In this document: positions 1-13,266 of the stretch, piece after piece
Position numbering within the stretch: position 1 is the first letter of the stretch
How the letters are laid out: the number at the start of each line of letters is the position of its first letter
IMG/VR virus record: IMGVR_UViG_2541047885_000013
Coordinates: 1-13,482 of that record
Direction: 5' to 3' (one strand)
Source of the DNA: a virus
Taxonomy: Duplodnaviria > Heunggongvirae > Uroviricota > Caudoviricetes
Length of the DNA stretch: 13,482 nt
The notes under the pieces: model-generated
What the model was told of the DNA's origin: nothing
What the model saw: the letters and a program-made list of their open reading frames with translations, nothing else
Database searches by the model: none
Position numbers and translations under genes: made by a program

Positions 1-1284
1 TTACTTCTTCGCCTCTGCAACCACTTTACTACCCACGCCGCGGTTATTGTATTCCCACATGCGGTTGTAGTTAGTGTCATTCAGATTGCGCTGTATTTCG
101 TCGTTATCATCTACGCTGCCGGTATTACCCGCAAACGGACGATTAGAGATCACCGCATCGGCCCACGGTTTAGCCGTGTTAAAACCTTCGTTGATGGCGC
201 TATCACGGATCACCACCTGACCGTTGGTATTGGCATCAACATCCAGCGAGCGGCCCAGTTGCGCCACACCATCACCGAAAGCATTGAAACGGCTGTTTAC
301 GGCGAGGAAACCGTAGTAAATGTTGGACAGCGTAGCCGGTGCAAACACATACGCTTCTTGCTGAGTACGTGAGTTCACCACGCGGAATTCGGTGTTATCG
401 AACACCACTGCGCCGCGACCAGAAACGATATCCACATCCCCTTCAATGTAGCTGTTGGTCACCAGCGTACGCGGCTGACGATTCGTTTCCAGACGGTTCT
501 GCACACCGCTGTTGGTGACAAAGAAGGTGTTCTGACGACCGAGAATGTTAACGTTGTTAATCTGTACCTGGTCACCATCAGTACGCAGTGCCACCGCCGG
601 ATGGTTACCTGCATCTACGCTATCGCCCAGCGTGTTTTCGATGGTCAGATTTTGCAGTTGCAGGCCATTGTTTTGTGACCAGAAGACCGCAGAGCAGAGA
701 ACACCGATACTGTCGCTGCGTTTGCTCTGGCAGCTATCGTACATATACCACGCTGGTTTACCTGGCATATATTTGCCGCGCGGGTTGACGTCGTGACGCC
801 AGTCGGCAGGGCTCATGCCACCATCAAGGGAAAGCCCAATCTTCACATCAATCGGTTTTTCACCTGTACCGTACAGAGTAATTCCACCCGGAGCGGCAGG
901 GACATATACCGTTCCCTGATACTCACCAGGCATCACGGCAATATACTGGCGCTTGTTGGTACGCTTGATAATTGCCGCATCTACCGCCGCCTGAATCGTG
1001 GTATGCGTTACACCTTGAGTGCCCGCCGGGCCGACAACAAAGTCAGGTTGCGCAGGCAGGGTAATCGGGGAAGGATTCCACGCTGCAGCACCTGGTGTCA
1101 GGGATGAAAAATAGTGTTGAGCATCGAAATTCTGCGCTTCTTTTGCCGACAGAATCGGGCGAGAAGAGGTACCAGGCGCGGTTTGATCAGAAGGACGTTG
1201 ATCGGGCGGGGTTGAGCTACAGGCGGTCAGCGTCACGCCAAAAGCCAATGCCAGCGCCAGACGGGAAACTGAAAATGTGTTCAC
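1..1284 (-). CDS. ybhC: YbhC, putative pectinesterase-family outer-membrane lipoprotein (host gene flanking attλ)
   Basis: Complete 427-aa ORF from the track; N-terminus has a lipoprotein signal with lipobox LTAC; sequence matches my recollection of E. coli YbhC, which lies next to attλ on the gal side. The window begins at its stop codon. Confidence 0.85.
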   Translation of the reverse strand: MNTFSVSRLALALAFGVTLTACSSTPPDQRPSDQTAPGTSSRPILSAKEAQNFDAQHYFSSLTPGAAAWNPSPITLPAQPDFVVGPAGTQGVTHTTIQAAVDAAIIKRTNKRQYIAVMPGEYQGTVYVPAAPGGITLYGTGEKPIDVKIGLSLDGGMSPADWRHDVNPRGKYMPGKPAWYMYDSCQSKRSDSIGVLCSAVFWSQNNGLQLQNLTIENTLGDSVDAGNHPAVALRTDGDQVQINNVNILGRQNTFFVTNSGVQNRLETNRQPRTLVTNSYIEGDVDIVSGRGAVVFDNTEFRVVNSRTQQEAYVFAPATLSNIYYGFLAVNSRFNAFGDGVAQLGRSLDVDANTNGQVVIRDSAINEGFNTAKPWADAVISNRPFAGNTGSVDDNDEIQRNLNDTNYNRMWEYNNRGVGSKVVAEAKK

Positions 1285-1330
1285 AGGTTGCTCCGGGCTA
1301 TGAAATAGAAAAATGAATCCGTTGAAGCCT

Positions 1331-1420
1331 GCTTTTTTATACTAAGTTGGCATTATAAAAAAGCATTTCTTATCAACTTGTTGCAACGAACAGGTCACTA
1401 TCAGTCAAAATAAAATCATT
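1331..1420. other. attL: attL of a lambda-type prophage: 15-bp core GCTTTTTTATACTAA (1331-1345) followed by the P' arm
   Basis: Core is read directly at 1331-1345. The following GTTGGCATTATAAAAAAGCATT..CTTATCAA..TTGTTGCAACGAACAGGTCACTATCAGTCAAAATAAAATCATTATTTG matches the remembered lambda attP P' arm (Int arm-type sites) with about 2 mismatches. Host sequence lies to the left and int immediately to the right. Confidence 0.85.
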
Positions 1421-2489
1421 ATTTGATTTCAATTTTGTCCCACTCCCTGCCTCTGTCATCACGATACTGTGATGCCATGGTGTCCGACTTATGCCCGAGA
1501 AGATGTTGAGCAAACTTATCGCTTATCTGCTTCTCATAGAGTCTTGCAGACAAACTGCGCAACTCGTGAAAGGTAGGCGGATCCCCTTCGAAGGAAAGAC
1601 CTGATGCTTTTCGTGCGCGCATAAAATACCTTGATACTGTGCCGGATGAAAGCGGTTCACGACGAGTAGATGCAATTATGGTTTCTCCGCCAAGAATCTC
1701 TTTGCATTTATCAAGTGTTTCCTTCATTGATATCCCGAGAGCATCAACATGCAATGTTGTAGGGATGGCAATTTTTACGCCTGTTTTGCTTTGCTCGACA
1801 TAAAGATATCCATCTACGATATCAGACCACTTCATTTCGCATAAATCCCCAACTCGCTGCCCGGTAACAACAGCCAGTTCCATTGCAAGTCTGAGCCAAC
1901 ATGGTGATGATTCTGCTGCTTGATAAATTTTCAGGTATTCGTCAGCCGTAAGTCTTGATCTCCTTACCTCTGATTTTGCTGCGCGAGTGGCAGCGACCGG
2001 GTTTGTTGTTATATGGCCTTCAGCCATTGCCTCTCGGAATGCATCGCTCAGTGTTGATCTGATTAACTTGGCTGACGCCGCCTTGCCCTCGTCTATGTAT
2101 CCATTGAGCATTGCCGCAATTTCTTTTGTGGTGATGTCTTCAAGTGGAGCATCAGGCAGACCCCTCCTTATTGCTTTAATTTTGCTCATGTAATTTATGA
2201 GTGTCTTCTGCTTGATTCCTCTGTTGACGAGGATTTTTTCGTAGCGATCAAGCCATGAATGTAACGTAACAGAATTATCACTGTTGATTCTCGCTGTCAG
2301 AGGCTTGTGTTTGTGTCCTGAAAATAACTCAATGTTGGCCTGTATAGCTTCAGTGATTGCTATCCTCCTGTCTCGGCCTAAACCAAACTCTTTACCCGTC
2401 CTTGGGTCCCTGTAGCAGTAATATCCATTGTTTCTTATATAAAGGTTAGGGGGTAAATCCCGGCGCTCATGACTTCGCCTTCTTCCCAT
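1419..2489 (-). CDS. int: Integrase (tyrosine recombinase), lambda Int type
   Basis: 356-aa translation MGRRRSHERRDLPPNLYIRNNGYYCYRDPRTGKEF...RDDRGREWDKIEIK matches lambda Int over its full length from memory; position next to attL and overlap with xis are as in lambda. Confidence 0.96.
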   Translation of the reverse strand: MGRRRSHERRDLPPNLYIRNNGYYCYRDPRTGKEFGLGRDRRIAITEAIQANIELFSGHKHKPLTARINSDNSVTLHSWLDRYEKILVNRGIKQKTLINYMSKIKAIRRGLPDAPLEDITTKEIAAMLNGYIDEGKAASAKLIRSTLSDAFREAMAEGHITTNPVAATRAAKSEVRRSRLTADEYLKIYQAAESSPCWLRLAMELAVVTGQRVGDLCEMKWSDIVDGYLYVEQSKTGVKIAIPTTLHVDALGISMKETLDKCKEILGGETIIASTRREPLSSGTVSRYFMRARKASGLSFEGDPPTFHELRSLSARLYEKQISDKFAQHLLGHKSDTMASQYRDDRGREWDKIEIK

Positions 2490-2685
2490 TTCTGATCCTC
2501 TTCAAAAGGCTACCTGTTACTGGTCGATTTAAGTCAACCTTTACCGCTGATTCGTGGAACAGATACTCTCTTCCATCCTTAACCGGAGGAGGGAATATCC
2601 TGCATTCGCGCACCCATCGACGAACTGTTTCAAGGCTTCTTGGGCGTCGCTGGCGTGCGTTCCACTCCTGAAGTGTCAAGTACAT
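2467..2685 (-). CDS. xis: Excisionase, lambda Xis type
   Basis: 72-aa translation MYLTLQEWNARQRRPRSLETVRRWVRECRIFPPPVKDGREYLFHESAVKVDL... matches lambda Xis; its 3' end overlaps the int start by 23 nt as in lambda. Confidence 0.95.
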   Translation of the reverse strand: MYLTLQEWNARQRRPRSLETVRRWVRECRIFPPPVKDGREYLFHESAVKVDLNRPVTGSLLKRIRNGKKAKS

Positions 2686-2790
2686 CGCAAAGTCTCCGCA
2701 ATTACACGCAAGAAAAGCCGCATTGATGCGGCAATGGTAGGTCTGGATATCTTGAGAAATGAACGGGCCTCATCGAGTGTGAGGCTGTGG

Positions 2791-3135
2791 TTAGTCCTTG
2801 CGTAACTCGCTAATTCTTCTGTAAGTCTCTGGTGCTTTGTTTCCGTGTATCTTCATTTCAGACTTCAACAGAGCAACGAGGGAATCCCATTCGGTGAGGA
2901 TGCCTTTGAATGCCGGAACGCGCTTTGCAACCTTGTCGAATGAATCTCTGATTTCTGGGATCTGCTCAACCAGTGCAACGCATCGTCGGAAATCGGCTGC
3001 GTCATGTGGAGCGCCGAAGTGATGACCATAGATATTCTTTTTCAGTCCACATGCGATTGAGGCAAGAGTTGCGCTACTGATGCCGACATCGCCAGTCGAT
3101 TGCCATTTCAAAACCTTCATAGCCAAATCTGACAT
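2791..3135 (-). CDS. Hypothetical protein, 114 aa (accessory gene next to xis)
   Basis: Track ORF 2791..3162; I place the start at the internal ATG (MSDLAMKVLKWQ...) because GGAG sits about 8 nt upstream and the longer N-terminal extension would run through a terminator hairpin. No family recognised. Confidence 0.55.
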   Translation of the reverse strand: MSDLAMKVLKWQSTGDVGISSATLASIACGLKKNIYGHHFGAPHDAADFRRCVALVEQIPEIRDSFDKVAKRVPAFKGILTEWDSLVALLKSEMKIHGNKAPETYRRISELRKD

Positions 3136-3146
3136 TTCTTGTCTCC

Positions 3147-3172
3147 AATAAAAAACCGCCATCAGGCGGTTT
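3147..3172 (-). terminator. Intrinsic terminator-like hairpin (AACCGCC-TGAT-GGCGGTT followed by TTTTTTATT on the minus strand)
   Basis: Read from the sequence: 7-bp GC-rich stem, 4-nt loop and a T-run on the minus strand. The stop codon of the 55-aa ORF lies in the loop, and the T-run runs into the RBS of the 114-aa gene. Confidence 0.5.
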
Positions 3173-3329
3173 GGTGTTCTTTCAGTTCTTCAATTCGAAT
3201 ATTGGTTACGTCTGCATGCGCTATCTGCGCCCATATCATCCAGTGGTTATAGCAGTCGTTGATGTCCTCTGCTTCGATAACCCTGTCGAATGACTCTCCA
3301 TTCCATTCACCTGTGACTCGGAAGTGCAT
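3162..3329 (-). CDS. Small hypothetical protein, 55 aa (MHFRVTGEWNGESFDRVIEAEDINDCYNHWMIWAQIAHADVTNIRIEELKEHQTA)
   Basis: Hand-translated ORF, below the track length cutoff; GGAG lies 8 nt upstream of the ATG (tatGGAGatgataaATG); bracketed by terminator-like hairpins upstream and downstream. In a different frame from the track's 61-aa ORF 3236..3421. Confidence 0.45.
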   Translation of the reverse strand: MHFRVTGEWNGESFDRVIEAEDINDCYNHWMIWAQIAHADVTNIRIEELKEHQTA

Positions 3330-3339
3330 TTATCATCTC

Positions 3340-3367
3340 CATAAAACAAAACTCGCCGTAGCGAGTT
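3340..3367 (-). terminator. Terminator-like hairpin (AACTCGC-tacg-GCGAGTT followed by TTTGTTTTAT on the minus strand)
   Basis: Inverted repeat read directly, about 65 nt downstream of the DUF551 gene stop, with a T-rich tail on the minus strand. Confidence 0.4.
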
Positions 3368-3429
3368 CAGATAAAAGAAATCCCCGCGAGTGCGAGGATT
3401 GTTATTCACCTTTGACGGCAAGTTGAAGG

Positions 3430-4350
3430 TTAGCCACGGTTAACCCCCTGCGGCGGTTCTGGCAGCGGCATCCAGTGGGTTACGTCATCCAAGATATTTC
3501 CTGATAAATATGTGAAAGCTCTATATTTTTTGTAATCAATTGGACTCATTACCCAGTTCCAATATGCTGCCACTATTTGACCTTGACTAAATGCCAGTAA
3601 CATTTTGGTGTCGTCCGGCATTCGCTCACTACAGCTTATCCAACCATCCGGAGTTACCGGAACTTGTGGAATGGCTGTCTGCTCTCGAACGTCATTAGGC
3701 GCTATAGGTTCTGCTGCCAACTGACTGGCATATTTGTTAATGGTAACGATAAGCTCTTGCTCAGCCTCATCCAGACAATCACCGATACCTCGCCTGTCAC
3801 CGTCAAAATCATCGAAATCGGCACGAATCCTGGCAACCTTCAGGATTGCGGACAACACCTCACTAGGAATTGCCGGATAGTTGGTTGACGTTTCCGCGAT
3901 TTCCCGAAAATTATTGGTTGACGAATTCTTGTTTTCCCGAAAGTTTCCGGACTGAAGCATGGCGGCGCGGCAGGCGTTCCATATTTCGGCAGCAATATCG
4001 CGCTCGCTATCGGTTAATTTGTACGTTGAAACATAGCCAGAGAGCATTTCTACGTTTTCCGGAGTTGCTTCTTCAGGCACTACCGGTGCTGGAGGGGCGG
4101 CGTAAATGCCCTCTATCACTAAATGTTTGCGCTCAAAATCATCTGGCTCTCGATGATATACGTAACTCCAATCACCAAGGTTATCATTGCGCCTGCAACG
4201 GAAACCTATCGGCTCTGCTTCCAGCGATGCCAGAGCAATTCGTGCCAGTTCTTCCGCTTCTTCTGCTGGCAGTACAACGTTGCTACCAGGTCCGTATGTT
4301 TCGCGCCACTGCCTGATTGTCAGCAGTCGCTCTTTGGTAATAGTGGTCAT
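3430..4350 (-). CDS. DUF551-like prophage protein, 306 aa
   Basis: Track ORF; the C-terminal segment ending ...VTHWMPLPEPP resembles the DUF551 domain common in enterobacterial prophage early regions; the N-terminal two thirds are unassigned. Confidence 0.65.
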   Translation of the reverse strand: MTTITKERLLTIRQWRETYGPGSNVVLPAEEAEELARIALASLEAEPIGFRCRRNDNLGDWSYVYHREPDDFERKHLVIEGIYAAPPAPVVPEEATPENVEMLSGYVSTYKLTDSERDIAAEIWNACRAAMLQSGNFRENKNSSTNNFREIAETSTNYPAIPSEVLSAILKVARIRADFDDFDGDRRGIGDCLDEAEQELIVTINKYASQLAAEPIAPNDVREQTAIPQVPVTPDGWISCSERMPDDTKMLLAFSQGQIVAAYWNWVMSPIDYKKYRAFTYLSGNILDDVTHWMPLPEPPQGVNRG

Positions 4351-4360
4351 GTGTTAGTCC

Positions 4361-4624
4361 TTATCCTGCTGTACTTTCAACTGATGAGGGGAATAAAATC
4401 TTTTCATCAAATCCGGCATTCATATCATGAACAGCAACACACCAATCCATTGACGAACGATTATCAAGAGCTTCCATGATTTCATCCATGCGGCGCAGGT
4501 CATACAGGTAAATGCTTTTATCGCCAATGGTGTAAAAACCAATTTTTTTCGGTGATGGGCAGCGATCAAGAACGTCCTGTAATTCGCTCAACCATGCTTG
4601 TTCTTTTTTTGTCAAAGTTGCCAT
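4361..4624 (-). CDS. Hypothetical protein, 87 aa
   Basis: Track ORF in the same orientation and tightly packed with its neighbours (2-nt gap to the next gene); no family recognised. Confidence 0.5.
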   Translation of the reverse strand: MATLTKKEQAWLSELQDVLDRCPSPKKIGFYTIGDKSIYLYDLRRMDEIMEALDNRSSMDWCVAVHDMNAGFDEKILFPSSVESTAG

Positions 4625-4625
4625 A

Positions 4626-5168
4626 TCACTCTCCTTTGATGCGAATGTCAGCGACGCGTAATGCGTGTTCTAGGTCAATCAGGTAAAGCCAACTGCCATT
4701 TTCTTTAGGTATCATGACTTGTCGCTCATCTGCATTTATCGGGTGTCCATATCGAAGGTCGTAGCGAGTCGGTAATTGAACTTCCCGCGCTTCCAGTTCA
4801 GCAATACGCTTGCACCCATCAGAGATAACTCCCTCGTAATACTCGCGCTGCTCGTTGAGTTTTGATTTTGCTGCTTCAAGCTCAACGCGCAGCTTCCCAA
4901 CCGTAAGCGCAATATCCTCGTTCTCCTGGTCGCGGCGTTTGATGTATTGCAGGTTTCTTTCCCGTTCATCCAACAATGCCAGCACGGTTTCTGGTCAGGT
5001 CAGAAATTTGAAGGCGTTGAGCGCATCAATATCCACACCGTAATCTTTAAGTTCCTGTTCACTTATCAGATCATCATCAACTGGCAACATTAACAGGCGT
5101 TCCATTGCCGGAATTGCACGTTCTGCCGCCTCACGCAGCGCCAGTGTGTCGATGTCGATGTTGCTCAT
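4626..5168 (-). pseudogene. ea22-like coiled-coil gene interrupted by an in-frame TGA (5' part 4995..5168, 3' part 4626..4985)
   Basis: Track ORFs 4995..5192 and 4626..4985 are in the same frame, separated by one TGA and three sense codons (...FKFLT*PET-V-LALLDERER...). The 5' part has a strong RBS (GAGGAGG) before MSNIDIDTL. The 3' part begins at a GTG with no recognisable RBS. The combined length of about 180 aa is close to lambda Ea22 (182 aa, from memory). Confidence 0.45.
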
Positions 5169-5398
5169 TGTGCCTCCTCGATTTCGTCCCATTCCACCCA
5201 GGCATTCTCTCCATCAGCATCGATTTCACCTTTGTGACCGCATTTGGAACAAACGGCCTCATCACCCGCCCACAAAGAATCTTTGGTTACCGACCATCCT
5301 GTTACCTTGGCTTTGCCGTGCTGGCACTTAGGGCAATCATCAAGCCATTCGACTTCGACCATTGAAGGACCAAATCCATGTTCAGTTCGGATGCTCAT
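5165..5398 (-). CDS. Small zinc-ribbon protein, about 77 aa (two CxxC pairs: CPKC and CSKC)
   Basis: Track ORF 5165..5431; I prefer the start at MSIRTEHG because its ATG overlaps the stop of the upstream gene as ATGA. Its own stop overlaps the start of the ea22-like gene in the same way. Confidence 0.55.
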   Translation of the reverse strand: MSIRTEHGFGPSMVEVEWLDDCPKCQHGKAKVTGWSVTKDSLWAGDEAVCSKCGHKGEIDADGENAWVEWDEIEEAQ

Positions 5399-5943
5399 GA
5401 CTGAACTCCTTTGCGAATCTGTTCCGCCCATTCTTCAAGGGATTTCTCCGCATATTCACCGGACAGGCCATCAATCGGATGCGGTTCATTAGCCAACTCT
5501 TCTTTCGCTGACAAAATCATGCGTGTAACGTCGAAAACTTCACGCAAAGACTTATTGATAAATCCGTGATTGAACGCAGCAGCAAGACGGCTTGCGGTGT
5601 AGTTAATCCCCTCGTTGCGTGCCTCCGCACGTATTTCAGCCAGGAAAGCGTCGGTGTCTGTGGTTTCGATATCGTTAATTTCAGGAAGAATCTCTTCCCA
5701 TGTAGCGATATCGCCATTCAAATGCCATCCGGCAATTCCACTGGAGTTATCCGCAACACTGCGAACAGCTTCAATAGTTTCATGCATTGCCGCATTCTCA
5801 GCCGCCAGAGCAGCATATTTATCTTCAAGTTCACCGAATTTACGCACCAGATATTCAGCGTTTGTTTCGTTAACCTTTAAATCATTTGGGATGCATTTAC
5901 CTTTCAGAAAACCATCCATCTCAATTAGTGACATTTGTTTCAT
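5395..5943 (-). CDS. Hypothetical protein, 182 aa
   Basis: Track ORF; GGAG lies about 9 nt upstream of the ATG; coupled to flanking genes by ATGA overlaps. No family confidently recognised. Confidence 0.6.
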
Positions 5944-6104
5944 TTTTTCCCACTCCGCAACATCGCATTCAGATATTTGTTTTGATTCACTGATGGAAAA
6001 GAATTTCTTTTAAGCAATTCTTCTCTCGATGGCATTGGCTTTACGCGTTGGCGAATAATCATTTCTGCCGGAAGAATGCCGGGGTTGTATGCAAGTCCTC
6101 TCAT
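5940..6104 (-). CDS. Small hypothetical protein, 54 aa ([54 protein letters not shown])
   Basis: Hand-translated, below the track cutoff; its start overlaps the stop of the 93-aa gene (ATGA) and its stop overlaps the start of the 182-aa gene (ATGA). It fills an otherwise non-coding 160-nt gap. Confidence 0.4.
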
Positions 6105-6382
6105 GATTTACTCTCCATGAACTGGTCAACAGCCATGCTAAGTGATACACCTAAAGTCTCGATATGCTGCTGAATATCCTGTAGCGTCTGCGCCTGAGAT
6201 AACAGGATTTCACGGTTGCATAACTCTTTGACCAGATGCTCAAACTTGCTGTAATAACCGATACGGCTTAGTGTTTCTTTCCCTGCATTCTCGCCTTCTT
6301 TGATAATTCCTCTTTCGCTAAGAATCAGATCGTGTTTGGTTCCGGTAATAACGTATTTGCCGAGGTCAATGTTTAGCTTCAT
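6101..6382 (-). CDS. Hypothetical protein, 93 aa
   Basis: Track ORF in operon orientation; no family recognised. Confidence 0.55.
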
Positions 6383-6398
6383 TGTTAATTACTCCATG

Positions 6399-6713
6399 TT
6401 AATTTATTCGTATGCCTGCTCTTCCTTCATCGAGTTTTTTTAGCTTGTATCGCATAGCTCTCACTGAATAAATTGAGCGGCAGGTTGCAATTGCTATTTC
6501 TTCTGCGGAGAACTTACCGAAAAGTGATACTTCGGCTCTTGTCCAGCGTCTTCCACGAAGTCGGCTAACAATGTCAGCGCCAATCCTTGTTGCTTTCGCC
6601 ATTACTGCTTTTTCAGTCCTTTCCAGTTTTTCAGCGATAACTTCAACTGGCATTGTCGCCGCTACTTCGCGCAAGAAATCGACTTCCCATTTCTCCCATG
6701 GAGTCTTTTTCAT
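6399..6713 (-). CDS. Hypothetical protein, 104 aa, with two tandem HTH-like motifs
   Basis: Track ORF. Two internally similar segments (W-x3-E-V..(E/V)EIA...R(T/S)...V.A...) match the general pattern of sigma-region-4/LuxR-type helix-turn-helix motifs; this is a pattern judgement, not a search hit. Confidence 0.55.
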   Translation of the reverse strand: MKKTPWEKWEVDFLREVAATMPVEVIAEKLERTEKAVMAKATRIGADIVSRLRGRRWTRAEVSLFGKFSAEEIAIATCRSIYSVRAMRYKLKKLDEGRAGIRIN

Positions 6714-6724
6714 AGGCGATACCG

Positions 6725-7207
6725 TTATTTGATAAGAAGTGAAGGTTTCCCAACCTTGAGTTGAGCGCCTGGGATATTTATTCCTGCTTTTAGTTGGTGC
6801 TTGATTGCCAGTTTGTCGGCTTTAATTGTCGTTTCGAACTCAACGTATTCAGGAGGAAGGGCGCTTGAGTCGATGATTTCTACAATTTCTGACGGTTTGC
6901 GGATTGTTACCTGGTGAATACCTGCTCGAATATTTTTCTTGCCAACCATTTCAAGCGATGACGCTATATATGATTTGATGCTGTCAATCTTATTTTGAAT
7001 TACTGCGGCTCGCTCATTCAGTGACTTTGCCTCTTCCTTGAGGCGTTCAGCATAACCAGATTCATTTTTAATGACGGAAAGAAGTTGCTCTATTTTATCG
7101 GTAAATTCTCCTTCCATGCCTTCTATTGTGTCAGCAATCATCTCTGGTTCTAAATCTGAATCCATCAATTTTGCGTATTCATTGGCAATTTCATATAGTT
7201 TGCTCAC
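6725..7207 (-). CDS. Coiled-coil protein resembling the siphovirus Gp157 family, often found beside phage recombinases
   Basis: Track ORF 6725..7213 begins at a TTG; I prefer the GTG start two codons in (GGAGG about 6 nt upstream). The family assignment is from recollection and the genomic context directly downstream of recT. Confidence 0.4.
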   Translation of the reverse strand: MSKLYEIANEYAKLMDSDLEPEMIADTIEGMEGEFTDKIEQLLSVIKNESGYAERLKEEAKSLNERAAVIQNKIDSIKSYIASSLEMVGKKNIRAGIHQVTIRKPSEIVEIIDSSALPPEYVEFETTIKADKLAIKHQLKAGINIPGAQLKVGKPSLLIK

Positions 7208-8102
7208 TGGCAACCTCCAGTTTCGCTTTGCATTCTGCGTAAATGGCTTGTACGTTCTGCTGCAATTTCATTCCAGATGTCAGGCGATATGCTTCTGCAA
7301 AATATCGCTTCAAATCATCCATGTTTTCAGCCTGAGCCATTTCATCACAAAGAAGTTGTGCTTTATCCGTTATTTCCTGCTGGCGTTTCCGTTCATCTTC
7401 GCGGATATCTTCCTCTGATTTGTGCGGCATAACTGGTTCAGTCCACACACCTTCTTCTTCGTTTAGTACGTGAATAGCACTATCAAGACGTGATGCCTTA
7501 GGCCAATACTTGCTTGCACGCTTTACGACCGTCTTTCGCGCCATCTCATTCCAGTGATTTACCCATGGTCCTTTATCGCTGAATGCCGCCTTGCTTGTTT
7601 TCCTTACAGCCTCAATTTCAGCCAGACTCATCTCTTCCGTTAGATAATCACCTGCTGGCGTCTTAACTGTGCAGTAAACGCCAACGATATCACCACGATC
7701 ACCGAAGGCGTTGTATTTATGGGTTGGTGCTTTATCAAGCCCGTTTGACTCATAGGTATCGTTAGCATGAACAAGTTTTGCCTGACCCCATGAGATAACA
7801 CCAGACTCCATTGCAATATGGAGCAATCCCATATAACTGATATCAAGGCACACCATGCCGTCGCGAGGAACCAGATAAGCCAGTTTGCTGGCCGGGTTTA
7901 AGGTGATGCCGATCGCCGCAACATTGATGATGGCGTTCTGTGCGCTGGTTGGATTTGCCAGTGCCGTTTTAGCCAGGTAATCATTTTTCTGGAAATACTG
8001 AATTGCAAACTGGCTTTCCTTAGCCCATGTCACCGTCTGTTCAGTCAATGCTCCGCAGAATAACTGCTCTTGCTGTTTAACGAATTCAACGATATTGCTC
8101 AT
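7191..8102 (-). CDS. recT: RecT-family single-strand annealing recombinase
   Basis: 303-aa translation contains ...GPWVNHWNEMARKTVVKRASKYWP..., closely paralleling Rac RecT ...GPWVTHWEEMAKKTAIRRLFKYLP..., plus the RecT-like segment NVAAIGITLNP. Confidence 0.8.
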   Translation of the reverse strand: MSNIVEFVKQQEQLFCGALTEQTVTWAKESQFAIQYFQKNDYLAKTALANPTSAQNAIINVAAIGITLNPASKLAYLVPRDGMVCLDISYMGLLHIAMESGVISWGQAKLVHANDTYESNGLDKAPTHKYNAFGDRGDIVGVYCTVKTPAGDYLTEEMSLAEIEAVRKTSKAAFSDKGPWVNHWNEMARKTVVKRASKYWPKASRLDSAIHVLNEEEGVWTEPVMPHKSEEDIREDERKRQQEITDKAQLLCDEMAQAENMDDLKRYFAEAYRLTSGMKLQQNVQAIYAECKAKLEVASEQTI

Positions 8103-8410
8103 GCAGCTTCTCCATAAATATGTCTGCGTTTGAATATTGCGAAGGCATATTCAGCCTTAACTCTTTCGGTTATTGCATCCCAGAACCATTCAGCGGCTTT
8201 TTCCTGATAGTTACAGTCATCATCTTCCAGCCAGTCGATAGCGTCCTTAGTGTGTTCATCTGGTTTATATGAGCGAAGCATTTCGCTTATTGGGTCGCAA
8301 CGTTTGCAGAGGCGATCAACTTCACTGTTGATTCGTTCGTAATCTTCATCAGTAAAACTTGCGATTATTTGCGATATTTCACGCTTATCATTCAGAGTCA
8401 GAATCATCAT
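8099..8410 (-). CDS. Hypothetical protein, 103 aa
   Basis: Track ORF; AGGAG lies 4 nt upstream of the ATG; its stop overlaps the recT start (ATGA). Confidence 0.55.
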   Translation of the reverse strand: MMILTLNDKREISQIIASFTDEDYERINSEVDRLCKRCDPISEMLRSYKPDEHTKDAIDWLEDDDCNYQEKAAEWFWDAITERVKAEYAFAIFKRRHIYGEAA

Positions 8411-8495
8411 CTTTCTCCTGTTCTTTGTGCTGATTGAGCATTTTGTTCATCTGACGAATGAATTCTTCGTCTGACCAGTTATCTGTAAAACTCAT
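8388..8495 (-). CDS. Small acidic hypothetical protein, 35 aa (MSFTDNWSDEEFIRQMNKMLNQHKEQEKDDDSDSE)
   Basis: Hand-translated; its start overlaps the stop of the cIII-like gene (ATGA); its 3' end overlaps the start of the 103-aa gene in another frame. Weak RBS. Confidence 0.3.
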   Translation of the reverse strand: MSFTDNWSDEEFIRQMNKMLNQHKEQEKDDDSDSE

Positions 8496-8662
8496 GGACG
8501 GCCTTGTTGTTTCAAAATATCCCAAAGCTTTTCGAGCAAACTTTTCATTCTTGGTTGTTTAAAGTCTGCTCCGGTTAAAATATTTTTTCGTGAATGCTGT
8601 ACCGATAAAATCGGGTTGAAAGGGCGAACCGATGCCGCCCCTGCAATAGCGAACTGTTGCAT
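8492..8662 (-). CDS. cIII: cIII-like protein, 56 aa (putative FtsH inhibitor)
   Basis: Internal start of track ORF 8492..8767, with AGGAG 5 nt upstream of the ATG. The translation MQQFAIAG...KSLLEKLWDILKQQGRP resembles lambda CIII (MQYAIAGW...ESLLERITRKLRDGWKRLIDILNQPGVP, from memory), and it lies in the expected position in the pL operon. Confidence 0.5.
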   Translation of the reverse strand: MQQFAIAGAASVRPFNPILSVQHSRKNILTGADFKQPRMKSLLEKLWDILKQQGRP

Positions 8663-8866
8663 AGGATGCTCCTTCTGTTTGATTGCATAACGAAAACGCC
8701 TCAAGTGAAGCGTTATTGGTATGCATATAAAAAAGCCCTCACATAGGAGGGCAAAGAAGATTTCCAATAATCAGAACAAGTCGGCTCCTGTTTAGTTACG
8801 AGCGACATTGCTCCGTGTATTCACTCGTTGGAATGAATACACAGAGCAGTGTTTATTCTGTTTTTT

Positions 8867-8896
8867 ATGGCAAAAATAAAAGCTGCCATCAGGCAG
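8867..8896 (-). terminator. Intrinsic terminator-like hairpin (GCTGCC-TGAT-GGCAGC followed by TTTTATTTTT on the minus strand), in a tL1-like position
   Basis: Read from the sequence; it lies in the pL operon downstream of N and the small acidic ORF and upstream of cIII, a position analogous to lambda tL1. Confidence 0.5.
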
Positions 8897-8969
8897 CCTT
8901 GTTGTTCTGTTTACCAAGTTCTCTGGAAATCATTGCCGTCGTTCGTATTGTCCACACCATTGATTTTTA

Positions 8970-9056
8970 TCAATAGTCGTAGTCATACGGATAGTCCTGG
9001 TATTGTTCCATCACATCCTGCGGATGCTCTTCGAACTCTTCAAATTCTTCTTCCAT
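8970..9056 (-). CDS. Very acidic 28-aa peptide (MEEEFEEFEEHPQDVMEQYQDYPYDYDY)
   Basis: Hand-translated; strong RBS (GAGGTGA) 4 nt upstream of the ATG; first ORF downstream of N. The track's plus-strand ORF 8849..9088 is antisense to it. Confidence 0.4.
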   Translation of the reverse strand: MEEEFEEFEEHPQDVMEQYQDYPYDYDY

Positions 9057-9064
9057 ATATCACC

Positions 9065-9391
9065 TCAAATAAGTGGTTTGCTGCCTAATTTCATTTTCTG
9101 GCGACCAACACAAGTCACACCCATTTCACTGCGTGGCTTGCTGTACCATGTGCGCTGATTCTTGCGCTCAATACGTTGCAGGTTGCTTTCAATCTGTTCG
9201 TGGTATTCAGCCAGCACTGTAAGGTCTATCGGATTCAGTGCGCTTTCTACTCGTGATTTCGGTTTGCGATTCAGCGAGAGAATTGGGCGGTTAACTGGTT
9301 TTGCGCTTACCCCAACCAACAGGGGATTTGCTGCTTTCCATTGAGCCTGTTTCTCTGCGCGACGTTCGCGGCGGCGTGTTTGTGCATCCAT
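9065..9391 (-). CDS. N: Antitermination protein N (lambda type)
   Basis: 108-aa translation MDAQTRRRERRAEKQAQWKAANPLLVGVSAKPVNRPILSLNRKPKSRVESALNPIDLTVLAEYH... matches lambda N (arginine-rich boxB-binding motif at the N-terminus); the extreme C-terminus differs. Confidence 0.93.
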   Translation of the reverse strand: MDAQTRRRERRAEKQAQWKAANPLLVGVSAKPVNRPILSLNRKPKSRVESALNPIDLTVLAEYHEQIESNLQRIERKNQRTWYSKPRSEMGVTCVGRQKMKLGSKPLI

Positions 9392-9589
9392 CTGGATTCT
9401 CCTGTCAGTTAGCTTTGGTGATTGGATGGCCGGCGCTGAACCCCGGCTTACTGGTTAGAGCGCCCGCACTACCAGTGACGCTGTCTTGAGGCGCAGATTG
9501 GTTACTGCTTGCCATGAGCGCTGTTTATACATTGGTCGAGCATCAGCCTGCTCATTCATCCAATCCCAAAGCCTTCTGCTTTGAAAGCT

Positions 9590-9622
9590 GCCCTTCTTCA
9601 GGGCTTAATTTTTAAGAGCATC
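9590..9622 (-). promoter_or_regulatory. nutL: nutL (boxA CGCTCTTAA-like, boxB GCCCTGAAGAAGGGC on the minus strand)
   Basis: The reverse complement of 9590-9622 reads GATGCTCTTAAAAATTAAGCCCTGAAGAAGGGC, matching lambda nutL boxA and boxB, in the leader between pL and N. Confidence 0.85.
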
Positions 9623-9652
9623 ACCTTCATGGTGGTTAGTGCGTCCTGCTGA

Positions 9653-9688
9653 TGGCTAAATAGTACGATTTGTACTTTATCGAGTCAA
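9653..9688 (-). promoter_or_regulatory. pL promoter (-35 TTGACT, 17-bp spacer, -10 TACTAT, predicted +1 near 9653) with an overlapping operator AAAGTACAAATCGTACTATT
   Basis: Minus-strand sequence TTGACT-N17-TACTAT-TTAGCC-ATCAGCAGGACGCAC has the same architecture as lambda pL and its transcript start (ATCAGCAGG), but the operator sequence is different from lambda's. Confidence 0.7.
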
Positions 9689-9750
9689 TACAAAATGTTC
9701 TAAATATGATTAGTTTTTTATAACGCTTTGTATTTAATGGGTTTATGTTT

Positions 9751-9783
9751 TGGAAAAAGAAAACCCGACGCTAAGGTCGGGTT
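9751..9783 (-). terminator. Intrinsic terminator immediately downstream of cI (AACCCGAC-loop-GTCGGGTT followed by TTCTTTTTCC on the minus strand)
   Basis: 8-bp GC-rich stem and T-run read directly, about 30 nt after the cI stop. Confidence 0.6.
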
Positions 9784-9813
9784 ATTGTTGTGTGTTTTAG
9801 AGTTGTGAGGCTG

Positions 9814-10473
9814 TTAACTAAATGTCTCTTCAGGCCACTGGCTGGCGATAACTTTCCCTACTACGGAACAGCTATCATTGCATGGAATCATTGGATATTG
9901 CGGGTTTAGTGGCTGTAGGAACACCTGACCGCTATCCCTGATCAGTTTCTTGAAGGTAAACTCGTCACCACCAAGTCTGGCTATGCAGAAATCACCTGGC
10001 TCAACAGCCTGCTCAGGGTCAACGAGAATTAACATCCCGTCAGGAAAGCTTGGCTTGGATCCTGTTGGCGCGGTCATGGAATTACCTTCAACTTCAAGCC
10101 AGAACGCACAATCACTGGCTTTTTTGGTTGTGCTGACCCATCTCTCCGCATCACCTTTGGTAAAGGTTCTAAGCTCAGGCGAGAACATCCCGGCCTGAAC
10201 ATGAGAAAAAACAGGGTACTCATATTGTTTTTTAACGGGGGCAGATGAGTATTCGCCAACAGGTGAAAATGTACCGTCGTGGTTGAATGAGACGTTATCA
10301 ATACCAAGGTATTTAAACACCACACCAATCTCGTCAAGAGATGGATGACGAGATCCGCGCAACCAGTGACCAATTCCACCCTGCGTCATACCAAGCTCTT
10401 CAGCTAACTTCTCTTGAGTTATGCCGAGCTCTTTCATTCTGGATCTAGCCAGTTCATACCATTTCATTTTCAT
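9814..10473 (-). CDS. cI: cI-type prophage repressor: lambda-like C-terminal S24 autopeptidase/dimerisation domain joined to a non-lambda N-terminal HTH domain
   Basis: Track ORF 9814..10515. From ...[39 protein letters not shown]... to the end it matches the lambda CI C-terminal domain almost residue for residue (from memory). The N-terminal about 90 aa ([40 protein letters not shown]...) is an XRE-type HTH unlike lambda's. Start chosen at MKMKW (10473); 10467 or 10515 are possible. Confidence 0.85.
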
Positions 10474-10529
10474 ACCCTTATTATTACGCTCTGTACTAAA
10501 ACCATCCATGCACAAGATGTATTTTTTGT

Positions 10530-10558
10530 TTGCATTCTAAAAGTACATATCGTATTAT
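10530..10558 (+). promoter_or_regulatory. pR promoter (-35 TTGCAT, 17-bp spacer, -10 TATTAT) with an overlapping operator AAAGTACATATCGTATTATT
   Basis: Read directly in the cI-cro intergenic region. The 20-bp operator-like sequence over the -10 is a near copy (2 mismatches) of the one overlapping the pL -10; a third related site (TAGTACAGAGCGTAATAAT, minus strand, about 10479-10498) sits just upstream of the cI start. Confidence 0.55.
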
Positions 10559-10584
10559 TGTTTCATGGTTACTATGGAGGGCAT

Positions 10585-10800
10585 ATGAGCAACCTACGAA
10601 AATATCGAGAGTCACTGAATATCTCTCAAACAACACTTGCTAAGGCAGTTGGATGCACACAGGGAGCTATCGGACATTGGGAATCTGGTCGTCGCTTCCC
10701 AGACCTTAAAACATGCCGTGCTCTTGTTGAGTGCCTAAACAAGTTAGGCGCAAAAGTCAGTCTTGATGACGTGTTCCCGCCGGAACACAAAGCCGCTTAA
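10585..10800 (+). CDS. cro: Cro-like repressor, 71 aa, XRE-type HTH
   Basis: Internal ATG of track ORF 10414..10800, with GGAGGG 4 nt upstream. Its HTH (ISQTTLAKAVGCTQGAIGHWESG) is similar to the cI N-terminal HTH. It is divergent from cI and followed by nutR. Confidence 0.8.
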   Translation: MSNLRKYRESLNISQTTLAKAVGCTQGAIGHWESGRRFPDLKTCRALVECLNKLGAKVSLDDVFPPEHKAA

Positions 10801-10809
10801 GACATTCTA

Positions 10810-10840
10810 GCTCTTACACATCACAGCCCTGAAAAAGGGC
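10810..10840 (+). promoter_or_regulatory. nutR: nutR (boxA GCTCTTACACA, boxB GCCCTGAAAAAGGGC)
   Basis: Sequence AGCTCTTACACATCACAGCCCTGAAAAAGGGC matches lambda nutR boxA and boxB, between cro and cII. Confidence 0.85.
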
Positions 10841-10916
10841 ATTACCAGAAACAAATCTCTATGGTTTTGCGTTTCTTTGCGAAGCCAACTCTATCTAATC
10901 ATTAAGGAAATTATCT

Positions 10917-11198
10917 ATGGGTACTATTGCAACTAAAAGCAAGAAAGCGGCTCGCATCGAGTCGGCCTTGCTGAACAAACTGGCACTGATGGGGCAGAAG
11001 ACATTCGCTCGAGCAATGGGGGTTCCTGAATATCAGGTAAGCCGATGGAAGAATGGTTTCTTCTCGCAGGTAAGCATGATGCTTGCTGTTCTGGAATACG
11101 GAATCGAAGACGATGAAATGGCTGAATTGACTAAGCGGCTTGCCGATTACCTGACAAAAGAAAAAGCCCCGAAGAACGGCGAATTCTTCGAGGCATGA
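10917..11198 (+). CDS. cII: cII-like transcriptional activator, 93 aa
   Basis: Translation ...[33 protein letters not shown]...[18 protein letters not shown]... parallels lambda CII ([33 protein letters not shown]...LLAVLEWGVVDDDMARL); position after cro and nutR. Confidence 0.75.
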
Positions 11199-11232
11199 TG
11201 TAGAAAGACTGGATCAATCCACAGGAGTAATT

Positions 11233-11379
11233 ATGACAAAACAACTCAGTCCTTACCAGGACAAAATTCACAAACACATACTACGTGATCGCTTCCTGTC
11301 CAGCTTCAAGCAGCCTGGTCGATTCCGGGCTGAGTTGGAAAAAGTGAAGCTGATGCAGAAGGAGAAAGGTCATGAGTAA
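11233..11379 (+). CDS. Small hypothetical protein, 48 aa, between cII and O
   Basis: Hand-translated ([48 protein letters not shown]); AGGAG lies 5 nt upstream of the ATG; its 3' end overlaps the O start by 8 nt. Confidence 0.35.
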
Positions 11380-12232
11380 TCTTGCAACCGTAACACATTT
11401 AAGGCCTTCACAACGGCCTGTGGAGCGTCGTGTGGCAGAAGTTGAAGATGGTTATACCCGTCTTGCAAATGCCCTGTATGAAGAGCTTATCGGCGCAGAT
11501 TTAACGAAAAATCAGAGCAAGGTTGCCCACGCCATATGCCGTAAAACATACGGCTACGGTAAAAAGATGGATCGCATCTCTGATAGTCAGTTAGCTCAAA
11601 TTACCAGGCTGCCAAGACAGAAGGTAAACAAGGCCAAGAATGAGCTTATCGCGATGAAGGTTATCCTTCGCGAAGGCCAGCAAATCGGGCCTAACAAGAA
11701 CATCGAGGAATGGCAAATCGAAGGGTGTCACTACTCTGGTGATAATGTCACTGCATTGGTGACAAAAAGTGTCACCAAAACGGTGACAGCGCTGTCACCA
11801 AAACAGGGACACACAAAAGAAACTATTACAAAAGAAAAAAGAAATAATAAAAACACTATGTCCGAAAGTGTTCGGACGGAGTGTGAAAAATCACCTGACC
11901 GTCACGAAGAAACCGACAAGGCATTCGAGGAAATATTCTGGTGTGCAGGCATGCGGAAAGCCGGGAAGAAAAACGCAGCTTCGGCATTCAGAACACAGTT
12001 CAGGGAATGGCGTAAAACTACCAGGGGTACGGCAAGCGAGTTTGCCACGATGCTGGCAGAAGACATCGCATGCAGGAATGGTAAGCAGTTCGGATTCGAC
12101 AGGTTGTTACCATCGAGCTACCTGAACGGTCAACGCTGGAACGACGAGAAGCCAGAAACTATTCAACCACAATCCAAACCATCATCCGCAATCACCGTAT
12201 CGAAAACTGGCTACGTGTTTTTCGACAGGTGA
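11372..12232 (+). CDS. O: Replication initiator, lambda O-like N-terminal iteron-binding domain
   Basis: The N-terminal region ([56 protein letters not shown]...GPNKNIEEW) parallels lambda O (DGYARLSNMLLEAYSGADLTKRQFKVLLAILRKTYGWNKPMDRITDSQLSEITKLP...GPNKNISEW); iterons lie inside the gene. The C-terminal half is not recognisably lambda-like. Confidence 0.8.
11726..11860. repeat. Putative replication origin inside the O gene: GTCAC/GTGAC iterons followed by an AT-rich tract
   Basis: Read directly: TGTCAC (11726), TGTCAC (11745), GGTGACA (11758), TGTCACC (11770), GGTGACA (11782), TGTCACC (11793), then an A/T-rich stretch (about 11815-11860). This organisation is analogous to the lambda origin. 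Confidence 0.6.
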
Positions 12233-12235
12233 ACC

Positions 12236-12343
12236 ATGAAATCAAAAATCAAATCGCTACTGGTCGCTGGTTATAACCACGGTTGGTTAAGTATTTCGTT
12301 TGTCGATTTCTGGTTTAAAAATCTCAATCTGAGGGAATCATGA
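12236..12343 (+). CDS. Small hydrophobic peptide, 35 aa (MKSKIKSLLVAGYNHGWLSISFVDFWFKNLNLRES)
   Basis: Hand-translated; AGGTGA lies just upstream of the ATG; its stop overlaps the start of the primase-like gene (ATGA). Confidence 0.35.
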   Translation: MKSKIKSLLVAGYNHGWLSISFVDFWFKNLNLRES

Positions 12344-13266
12344 CGCCAAGTGAACTCAGCGACCTGCTTTGGGCGCAGGTTGACAGGGTGGCTCCGCACC
12401 TGTTGCCAAACGGCAAGAAAGAGGGGCATGAGTGGGTTGCCGGTAACGTCAACGGTGACAAGGGAAACAGCCTTAAGGTCAACCTTAGCGGCAAGAAAAA
12501 ATGGGCTGATTTCGCTGAGGGAGACGGCGGTGACATGCTTGATTTGTGGATGGCGTGTCGTGGAATTAACCTGCATCAGGCTATGCAGGAAGCGAAAGCC
12601 TTTCTCGGAATCAAGGATGACGATCACCATTTCGATGCCAAACGTGAGAAGAAATTCTCCAGACCTGATCGCAAGAAAATCGCCCGCTATGTTACCAGAA
12701 CAGAATCCCATCTTGAGTACCTGCAATCGCGTGGCATATCGCCAGAAGTCGTAAAGCGCTACGAGGTTGTAAGCGGCAAGGTGTGGAATGGAGAGCGGGA
12801 ACTGGATGCTCTGGTGATTCCGTACAAACGCGATGGTGAGTTGTTGCAGGTCAAGCGAATCAGCACTGAGCGCCCGGACGGGAAGAAAGTCATTATGGCA
12901 GAAGGTGATTGCGAACCTTGTCTGTTCGGATGGCAGGCTCTGGACGCTGGCGTGAGGGCGGTTGTACTTTGCGAAGGCGAAATTGATTGTATGAGCTATG
13001 CGCAATACGGCATCTCGGCGTTATCCGTGCCGTTTGGTGGAGGGAAAGGCGCTAAGCAACAGTGGATTGAGTTTGAGTACCACAACCTCGACAGGTTTGA
13101 GGAAATATTCATCTCGATGGACGTTGATGATGTTGGTCGTGAAGCCGCAAGGGAAATCGCAAGCCGACTCGGTGAACATCGTTGCCGTCTTGTTACTCTG
13201 CCGTACAAAGACATTAACGAATGCCTGATGAATGGTGTTACCGAGGATGAAATCTGGCAGTACTGA
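12340..13266 (+). CDS. Toprim-domain primase-like replication protein, probably truncated at its 3' end by an IS insertion
   Basis: 308-aa track ORF with Toprim-like motifs (VVLCEGEIDCMSYAQYG and ISMDVDDVGREA). Its stop codon TGA (13264-13266) is the first three bases of the IS terminal repeat. Confidence 0.65.
   Translation: MTPSELSDLLWAQVDRVAPHLLPNGKKEGHEWVAGNVNGDKGNSLKVNLSGKKKWADFAEGDGGDMLDLWMACRGINLHQAMQEAKAFLGIKDDDHHFDAKREKKFSRPDRKKIARYVTRTESHLEYLQSRGISPEVVKRYEVVSGKVWNGERELDALVIPYKRDGELLQVKRISTERPDGKKVIMAEGDCEPCLFGWQALDAGVRAVVLCEGEIDCMSYAQYGISALSVPFGGGKGAKQQWIEFEYHNLDRFEEIFISMDVDDVGREAAREIASRLGEHRCRLVTLPYKDINECLMNGVTEDEIWQY

Follow-up and report, generated by a model that had tools for sequence, protein, structure and literature searches.

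A reduced lambda-type orf28-ral-PreS segment in the N-cIII interval of a lambdoid prophage, with a putative RNA hairpin directly upstream of the sRNA PreS

The window analyzed in this work is the whole of a 13,482-nucleotide stretch of viral DNA (Caudoviricetes; IMG/VR record IMGVR_UViG_2541047885_000013, positions 1 to 13,482), and the interval of interest lies between the genes N and cIII. The N antiterminator gene (9391-9065, minus strand; phrog_271) provides the context, and it is 99% identical to lambda N across the first 286 aligned bases, with a diverged 3' end. A nutL boxB (GCCCTGAAGAAGGGC; 9604-9590, minus strand) is present upstream of N, downstream of a pL-like promoter, which indicates that the interval is transcribed leftward and is antiterminated by N; the features of the interval lie on the minus strand, the sense strand of the early-left operon. 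On the far side lies cIII (8662-8492, minus strand; phrog_550), preceded by the ribosome-binding site AAGGAG at 8674-8669, and beyond cIII, reading leftward, a RecT-type recombinase and then a Gam-like protein are encoded. Megablast searches with the 402 bases from N to cIII returned 94-95% identity to lambda and to many other lambdoid phages. The lambda counterpart of the interval is 33,923-34,381, at about 94% identity with one 103-bp gap in ral; in a direct comparison, window positions 9081-8931 correspond to lambda 34,381-34,233, and window positions 8954-8727 correspond to lambda 34,152-33,923. Alignment to lambda orf28, ral, and PreS was checked as a test of the identification, and all three align.

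In the lambda records, orf28 (34,271-34,357) is followed by ral (34,087-34,287) and then by the spacer between ral and ea10, with sieB located between N and orf28 and ea10 located between the spacer and cIII. When the N-cIII interval was compared with lambda and with the annotation of the lambda records, sieB and ea10 were both missing, in agreement with a first-pass annotation of the window, made from the sequence alone, that had described the region between N and cIII of a lambdoid phage lacking these two genes. That annotation also stated that the interval holds only a micro-ORF, an inverted repeat, and a terminator, and here it fell short: a remnant of ral, an 85-nt homolog of the sRNA PreS with its own terminator, and a third hairpin are present as well. 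The leftward order is N, orf28, a dead ral, the ral terminator hairpin, an 18-bp stem-loop, PreS, a further hairpin, and cIII. The same arrangement from N to cIII is found in the isolated phage E212, where it aligns in a single piece, and in phage 21 N likewise adjoins orf28 without an intervening sieB. In lambda, the approximately 17 nt before the Shine-Dalgarno sequence of orf28 (34,381-34,365) resemble the 3' end of the window N gene (9081-9065), the stretches compared being GCAATCCAC-TATTTAAGGTG in lambda and GCAAACCACTTATTTGAGGTG in the window. From this comparison, the junction of N with orf28 seen in the window and in phage 21 may predate the lambda arrangement, in which the sieB segment would be an insertion.

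The first feature encountered after N is orf28 (9056-8970, minus strand), which encodes a 28-amino-acid peptide rich in acidic and aromatic residues (MEEEFEEFEEHPQDVMEQYQDYPYDYDY). Its Shine-Dalgarno sequence, GAGGTGAT (9066-9059, minus strand), overlaps the TGA stop codon of N (9067-9065), and, owing to the missing sieB segment, orf28 starts 8 nt beyond the N stop. Pairwise alignment revealed that the predicted product is identical over all 28 amino acids to the lambda orf28 protein (lambdap47, NP_040623), and a profile search matched it to phrog_16060, a family of unknown function, with E = 7e-19 over positions 1-28 of 28. The acidic 28-residue micro-ORF with a strong ribosome-binding site proposed in the first-pass annotation is thus real; what had not been recognized is that the peptide is lambda orf28, which already carries the annotation NP_040623. 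Pfam and NCBIfam contain no family for the peptide, a tblastn search with it found nothing, probably as a result of low-complexity masking, and a literature search on orf28 function returned nothing usable. Compared with lambda orf28, the window copy has the same strong Shine-Dalgarno sequence and the same 17-nt overlap with the start of ral, but it begins 8 nt past the N stop, as in phage 21, and its ral partner has been inactivated.

Conservation of the peptide among relatives, which had been put forward as a check in the first-pass annotation, was borne out: the frame is conserved, and 43 of 53 PreS-linked copies of orf28 are identical at the protein level. Across codons 2-23 in these 53 relatives, 10 synonymous and 4 non-synonymous site changes were counted, with 12 of the 14 at third positions, although only about 9 of the 66 sites are synonymous. 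Because the changes are concentrated at synonymous sites, the substitution pattern is probably the result of purifying selection, and it supports a translated product under constraint. A role of the peptide as a DNA mimic is pure speculation. Lambda orf28 has been scored as non-essential by CRISPRi. Among the relatives orf28 co-occurs with ral nearly always, and it is intact here despite the dead ral. Codons 1-9 (MEEEFEEFE, 9029-9056) did not vary at a single nucleotide across the 53 copies, against 10 synonymous variants in codons 12-23; the rough probability of such invariance by chance is about 0.02, which hints at an additional constraint at the nucleotide level at the start of the ORF. 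Altogether, orf28 has been annotated in lambda since 1982-83, bears a clear signature of coding selection, and survives in a prophage where its ral partner is dead.

The ral gene is present as a pseudogene (8986-8889, minus strand), with an ATG at 8986 and the original TGA stop at 8891-8889. The remnant retains 45 nt from the start of the gene and 62 nt from its end, homologous to lambda ral at the same position, and the intervening 103 bp are deleted at a junction (8951/8950) flanked by the microhomology GGACAAT/GGGCAAT. An intact ral frame of about 66 amino acids was looked for and is not present; the frame that remains after the deletion encodes 18 amino acids, MTTTIDKNQWCGQYERRQ*, and ends at 8930. 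The C-terminal piece of the remnant matches the Ral family phrog_1055, so the earlier reading that ral is missing from the interval was wrong. Relative to lambda ral, the restriction alleviation gene (phrog_1055), both ends are shared, but the window copy is not a functional member of the family. The same deletion junction was found in 25 of 5,426 complete E. coli genomes as well as in phage E212, and RefSeq/PGAP labels the same allele "antirestriction Ral family protein, frameshifted".

A consensus scan for intrinsic terminators on the minus strand predicted three, at 8900-8879, 8752-8735, and 8714-8695, with predicted energies of -14.5, -11.1, and -9.9 kcal/mol, respectively. All three fit the form of an intrinsic (Rho-independent) terminator, with a GC-rich stem-loop followed directly by a U-tract. 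The hairpin at the 3' end of ral (8900-8871, minus strand) has a 9-bp stem with the ral stop codon in the loop, followed by UUUUAUUUUU. Its lambda homolog is at the ral 3' end (approximately 34,075-34,096), and compared with the window allele (-14.5 kcal/mol), the lambda allele is weak (-4.3 kcal/mol). Among the relatives, at least three different stems occur at this position with the same U-rich tail, a combination that fits a real terminator. This hairpin had been described previously as a terminator resembling tL1. The hairpin with its U-tract stands, but its homology is to the 3' end of ral and not to the segment between N and orf28; we take tL1 of lambda to lie between N and ral/orf28, in a segment that is absent from the window. 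The lambda records contain no terminator features, and a literature search for the coordinates of lambda tL1 and tL2 returned nothing usable. On its alignment, the hairpin at 8900-8871 is ral's own 3' hairpin, and, going leftward from N, it is the first intrinsic terminator predicted in this prophage. The ral 3' end (8925-8871, minus strand) also carries a CA-rich tract, AACAGAACAACAA, directly before the strong U-tailed terminator, a layout typical of Hfq-binding sRNAs derived from 3' ends; an sRNA derived from the ral 3' end would have escaped the RIL-seq study of lambda, because the lambda allele of the hairpin is weak. The AgvB and AsxR anti-sRNAs were considered for this CA-rich tract and rejected, since their genes lie at the PR' moron site and no Rfam match to them occurs here. 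The third terminator-like hairpin (8714-8689, minus strand; AACGCUUCACUUGAGGCGUU followed by UUCGUU) lies just upstream of the cIII ribosome-binding site, and its lambda homolog is at approximately 33,494-33,513.

Between the ral hairpin and the third hairpin lies a homolog of the sRNA PreS/LPR1 (8813-8729, minus strand), approximately 85 nt in length and starting GAGCAAUGUCGCUCGUAACU. In lambda, PreS/LPR1 is an Hfq-dependent sRNA encoded between ral and ea10 and ending at a terminator named tL2a (Silverman et al., bioRxiv 10.1101/2024.10.31.621285). It is approximately 88 nt long and is processed to a more abundant form of approximately 68 nt; it is produced only in the lytic cycle, being absent in lysogens and seen within 10 minutes of induction; and it pairs with host mRNAs, activating dnaN, repressing alaS, and supporting phage DNA replication (10.1101/2024.10.31.621285). 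The oligonucleotide table of the preprint fixes the PreS sequence, which starts GAGCAATGTCGC / GAGCAATGTCGCTCGTAACT / GAGCAAUGUCGC and ends ...GAGGGCGATTTTTT / ...CCTCCAGTGTGAGGGCGATTTTTT (10.1101/2024.10.31.621285), and the start of the window homolog matches the cloning and T7 primers (oligos P810, P1103, P1104, and P969). Over the approximately 85 nt, the only differences between the window and lambda copies are two substituted loop positions of the terminator and an indel of 2 nt in its tail. The seed (nt 35-56, UUGUUCUGAUUAUUGGAAAUCU; 8779-8758, minus strand) spans the sites at which the preprint introduced the M1, M2, and delta-seed mutations, is intact in the window, and is identical to that of lambda. 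The PreS terminator (8752-8729, minus strand; lambda approximately 33,930) consists of GCCCUC-CUAUGU-GAGGGC followed by U6. Thus, the 5' sequence, the seed, the place in the pL operon after ral, and the GC-rich terminator with its U-tail are all shared with lambda PreS; in contrast, the window copy precedes the cIII leader rather than ea10 and has a dead ral upstream. Because the seed is identical, we infer that PreS of the window shares the function of lambda PreS.

A search against Rfam at the gathering score gave no match, and Rfam has no family for PreS; with the threshold relaxed to E of up to 10 over window positions 8400-9500, nothing credible was found, the matches to Phe_leader, RyhB, and STnc100 being at chance level (E >= 0.85). 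Nor is PreS annotated in RefSeq among the matches listed. Lacking both an annotation and a family, PreS will continue to be overlooked by readers of sequence, as it was in the first-pass annotation, where the palindrome directly beside it was noted; PreS and its terminator make up most of the sequence that was called structured there.

Directly 5' of PreS is a long hairpin (8848-8809, minus strand) with an 18-bp stem that includes two G-U pairs and is closed by a CAAC tetraloop. The predicted fold has an energy of -28.4 kcal/mol (z = -8.5), and none of 200 shuffled sequences folded as well. At the DNA level this is the longest inverted repeat of the whole window, with 22-nt arms (8805-8852) that are 86% complementary, and the 9-bp inverted repeat noted in the first-pass annotation (8815-8842) is its core. 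The first five nucleotides of PreS (+1 to +5) lie inside the 3' arm of the hairpin; the primer used in the preprint for the full deletion ends ...GTGAATACACG, which places PreS +1 (G8813) in that arm, and the +1 position derives from this primer design together with the northern band of approximately 88 nt. Compared with lambda, the window hairpin has gained one pair, by an A to U change at an A-A mismatch, which yields 18 contiguous pairs in place of 14 plus 3 with a mismatch.

Relatives with the PreS seed were examined, comprising about 120 viral contigs together with some genome contigs, and stem pairs were counted by script. In almost all of them the hairpin immediately precedes PreS, independent of the upstream gene, which may be ral with its terminator, another terminator, or an unrelated gene. 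The mosaic sequences break immediately 5' of a conserved GAATAA motif that precedes the hairpin and, at the other end, immediately 3' of the U-tract of PreS. In the main type of hairpin nearly every pair is invariant, a few singletons break a pair, and no classical two-sided covariation was found. One U-G pair of the stem varies to C-G or U-A, and the A-A mismatch of lambda has been closed three times, twice on the 5' arm (including the window) and once on the 3' arm. Seven relatives carry an unrelated stem at the same position, CCUAUAGCAGAUU-U(A/G)CG-AGUCUGCUAUG, with a UNCG loop and 11 to 13 contiguous pairs; in the script counts this alternative hairpin is offset by one column. Of the structural evidence, this second allele is the strongest.

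The hairpin and PreS also recur together in bacterial genomes. A 126-nt block that comprises both (8850-8725) was found at a coverage of at least 80% in 2,154 of 5,426 complete E. coli genomes (about 2,150-2,230), i.e., in approximately 40%, with up to six copies per genome, and the same pair was the recurring shared piece among partial matches in a spread sample (query positions approximately 208-341). By this distribution the hairpin and PreS form one cassette. Exact matches to the PreS seed were also observed in assemblies of Pseudomonas, Shewanella, Bacillaceae, Streptomyces-like organisms, and various metagenome-assembled genomes, often on low-coverage contigs of about 48.4-48.5 kb, and such matches in unrelated taxa are most likely lambda DNA contamination; most of the sequence retrieved by the scan of genome contigs was lambda-like and came from assemblies of unrelated taxa, without any gain in diversity. 

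Taken together, these data make it very probable that the interval is a lambda-type segment of the pL operon, running from orf28 through ral and PreS to the cIII leader, that has been reduced, and that the palindrome is the RNA hairpin of the PreS cassette. To judge from the alignments, the reduction is the loss of sieB and ea10 together with the frameshifting 103-bp deletion in ral. The interval is a deletion variant of a known, classic lambda segment, and the sRNA PreS, itself already described, is its principal functional element. 

The position of the hairpin resembles that of processing elements in other systems, where sRNAs are freed by endonucleolytic processing at a flanking helix, by RNase III in the case of lambda sib and T7 R1.1 and by RNase E in the case of CpxQ and SroC. 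As in these processed sRNAs, a stable helix or processing site lies immediately 5' of an Hfq-type sRNA body whose 3' end is an intrinsic terminator inside an operon; this likeness is a resemblance in possible mode of action and not membership of a class. We infer that the hairpin most likely marks the 5' processing boundary of PreS. The polycistronic pL transcript would be cut at this boundary, either through RNase III cleavage inside the stem or through another endonuclease acting at the 3' base of the hairpin, so giving the 5' end of PreS, and the hairpin, once separated from PreS, would remain on the upstream mRNA and shield its 3' end as a cap. Polymerase modified by N should pass the PreS terminator, and this counts against a simple formation of the 3' end there; likewise, RNase III processing hairpins have about two turns of mostly uninterrupted double-stranded RNA, and the 18-bp stem of the window, like the 14 plus 3 pairs of lambda, is short for such a substrate, which counts against a processing role. 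The preprint is silent on the biogenesis of PreS and on the hairpin (10.1101/2024.10.31.621285).

Several other explanations of the palindrome were weighed. The first-pass annotation had left its nature between a protein-binding site and an RNA structure, and of these the RNA structure is the better supported. That the palindrome is a DNA site for a dimeric phage or host protein, whether operator-like or a recombination site, would agree with a near-perfect inverted repeat with 22-nt arms and with a sequence that is highly conserved within the main type. However, the seven relatives with a replacement stem have swapped in an unrelated sequence at the same position, the two G-U pairs, which are possible only on the leftward transcript, are A-C mismatches on the opposite strand, and the palindrome is located within an operon, in transcribed DNA that has no promoter close by, where it travels with PreS and not with any gene for a DNA-binding protein; a DNA site is thus very improbable. 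The conservation of the palindrome that had been proposed as a check holds, in that it is kept 5' of PreS in nearly all relatives, apart from those seven. It is also conceivable, though clearly unlikely, that the hairpin has no part in PreS production and acts instead as a 3' stabilizer of the upstream mRNA, as a barrier to decay, or as an insulator against pairing, the 5' end of PreS being set independently, e.g., by RNase E. Where the ral terminator is missing, the hairpin follows directly on the conserved GAATAA, which may hold the stop codon of the upstream ORF, and the 68-nt form of PreS arises by further cleavage some 20 nt downstream, where the RNA is AU-rich and single-stranded, as at typical RNase E sites. 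Against such a role, the hairpin is linked to PreS and to no particular upstream gene, the block shared among E. coli genomes runs from the hairpin to the PreS terminator, and the annotated PreS +1 falls within the 3' arm of the hairpin.

A further alternative is that PreS, with or without the hairpin, is a primary transcript from a promoter of its own between the ral terminator and the hairpin, which would then be the 5' structure of a precursor. The strong terminator just upstream (8900-8871) suggests a separate transcription unit, and the A/T-rich spacer that follows it contains a TTGCCA motif; nevertheless, the consensus scan of the minus strand from 8900 to 8810 found no sigma-70-type promoter upstream of PreS, the absence of PreS in lysogens and its appearance within 10 minutes of induction are as expected of transcription from pL, and the largest northern band is approximately 88 nt, compared with the approximately 125 nt expected if the hairpin were included. 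An independent promoter is consequently improbable. We consider it very improbable that the whole interval is a decaying remnant of deletion in which no element is functional in the prophage. The frameshift in ral and the loss of sieB and ea10 point in that direction, but orf28 is intact and shows the pattern of purifying selection, the seed and terminator of PreS are intact, the isolated and viable phage E212 has the same arrangement, and phage 21 is likewise without sieB directly after N.

A stronger proposal can be formulated in two parts, namely that the hairpin is obligatory for PreS maturation and exists as two interchangeable alleles, and that orf28 is a translated acidic/aromatic microprotein that acts independently of Ral, being intact, with its strong Shine-Dalgarno sequence next to the N stop codon, in phages where ral is destroyed. 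The alleles would be the lambda-type stem of 14-18 bp with a CAAC loop and the unrelated stem of 11-13 bp with a UNCG loop. Taken jointly, the two parts are put forward tentatively, and we regard the pair as rather more likely to fail than to hold. Whether the hairpin takes part in PreS maturation and what orf28 does are modest questions, neither of which would change a paradigm; the cassette and its replacement allele nonetheless offer a way to test how the pL operon gives rise to an excised phage sRNA.

Further candidates in and around the cassette were tried and rejected. Masking of the PreS seed by an upstream sequence was considered, as the conserved CAGAAUAA, which precedes the hairpin, can pair with nt 35-42 of PreS in the window and in lambda; the idea was dropped because the pairing is lost in other upstream contexts and the accessibility of the seed is hardly altered. 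A 41-amino-acid ORF on the minus strand (8917-8795), which spans the ral terminator, the hairpin, and the 5' end of PreS, matches phrog_31828 with E = 5e-23; it was rejected as a gene, since the frame is open for only 16 codons in most relatives, and phrog_31828 was probably built from spurious ORF calls over a conserved non-coding block. The plus-strand ORFs at 8815-8976 and 8849-9088 have no family match. Among known sRNAs, svsR, whose gene lies at the 3' end of cI, is not related to this locus, and for Pas sRNA/STnc100 the paper describes no link to this locus.

Elsewhere in the window, a 35-amino-acid acidic ORF (MSFTDNWSDEEF...DDDSDSE; 8495-8388, minus strand) was observed with an ATGA overlap with the cIII stop; it belongs to phrog_17766, of unknown function, and sits where lambda has kil. 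A cluster of inverted repeats (11746-11799; TGTCACC/GGTGACA units) lies inside an O-like replication initiator gene, and these are presumably the origin iterons. At 1328-1420, the lambda att core GCTTTTTTATACTAA is followed by a sequence that resembles the lambda P' arm and by a lambda-type integrase gene (1419-2489), while the other side of the core (1-1284) carries a pectinesterase-family gene, which we take to be host ybhC, probably. The left end of the window thus looks like an attL junction, with the prophage at the lambda attachment site of E. coli.
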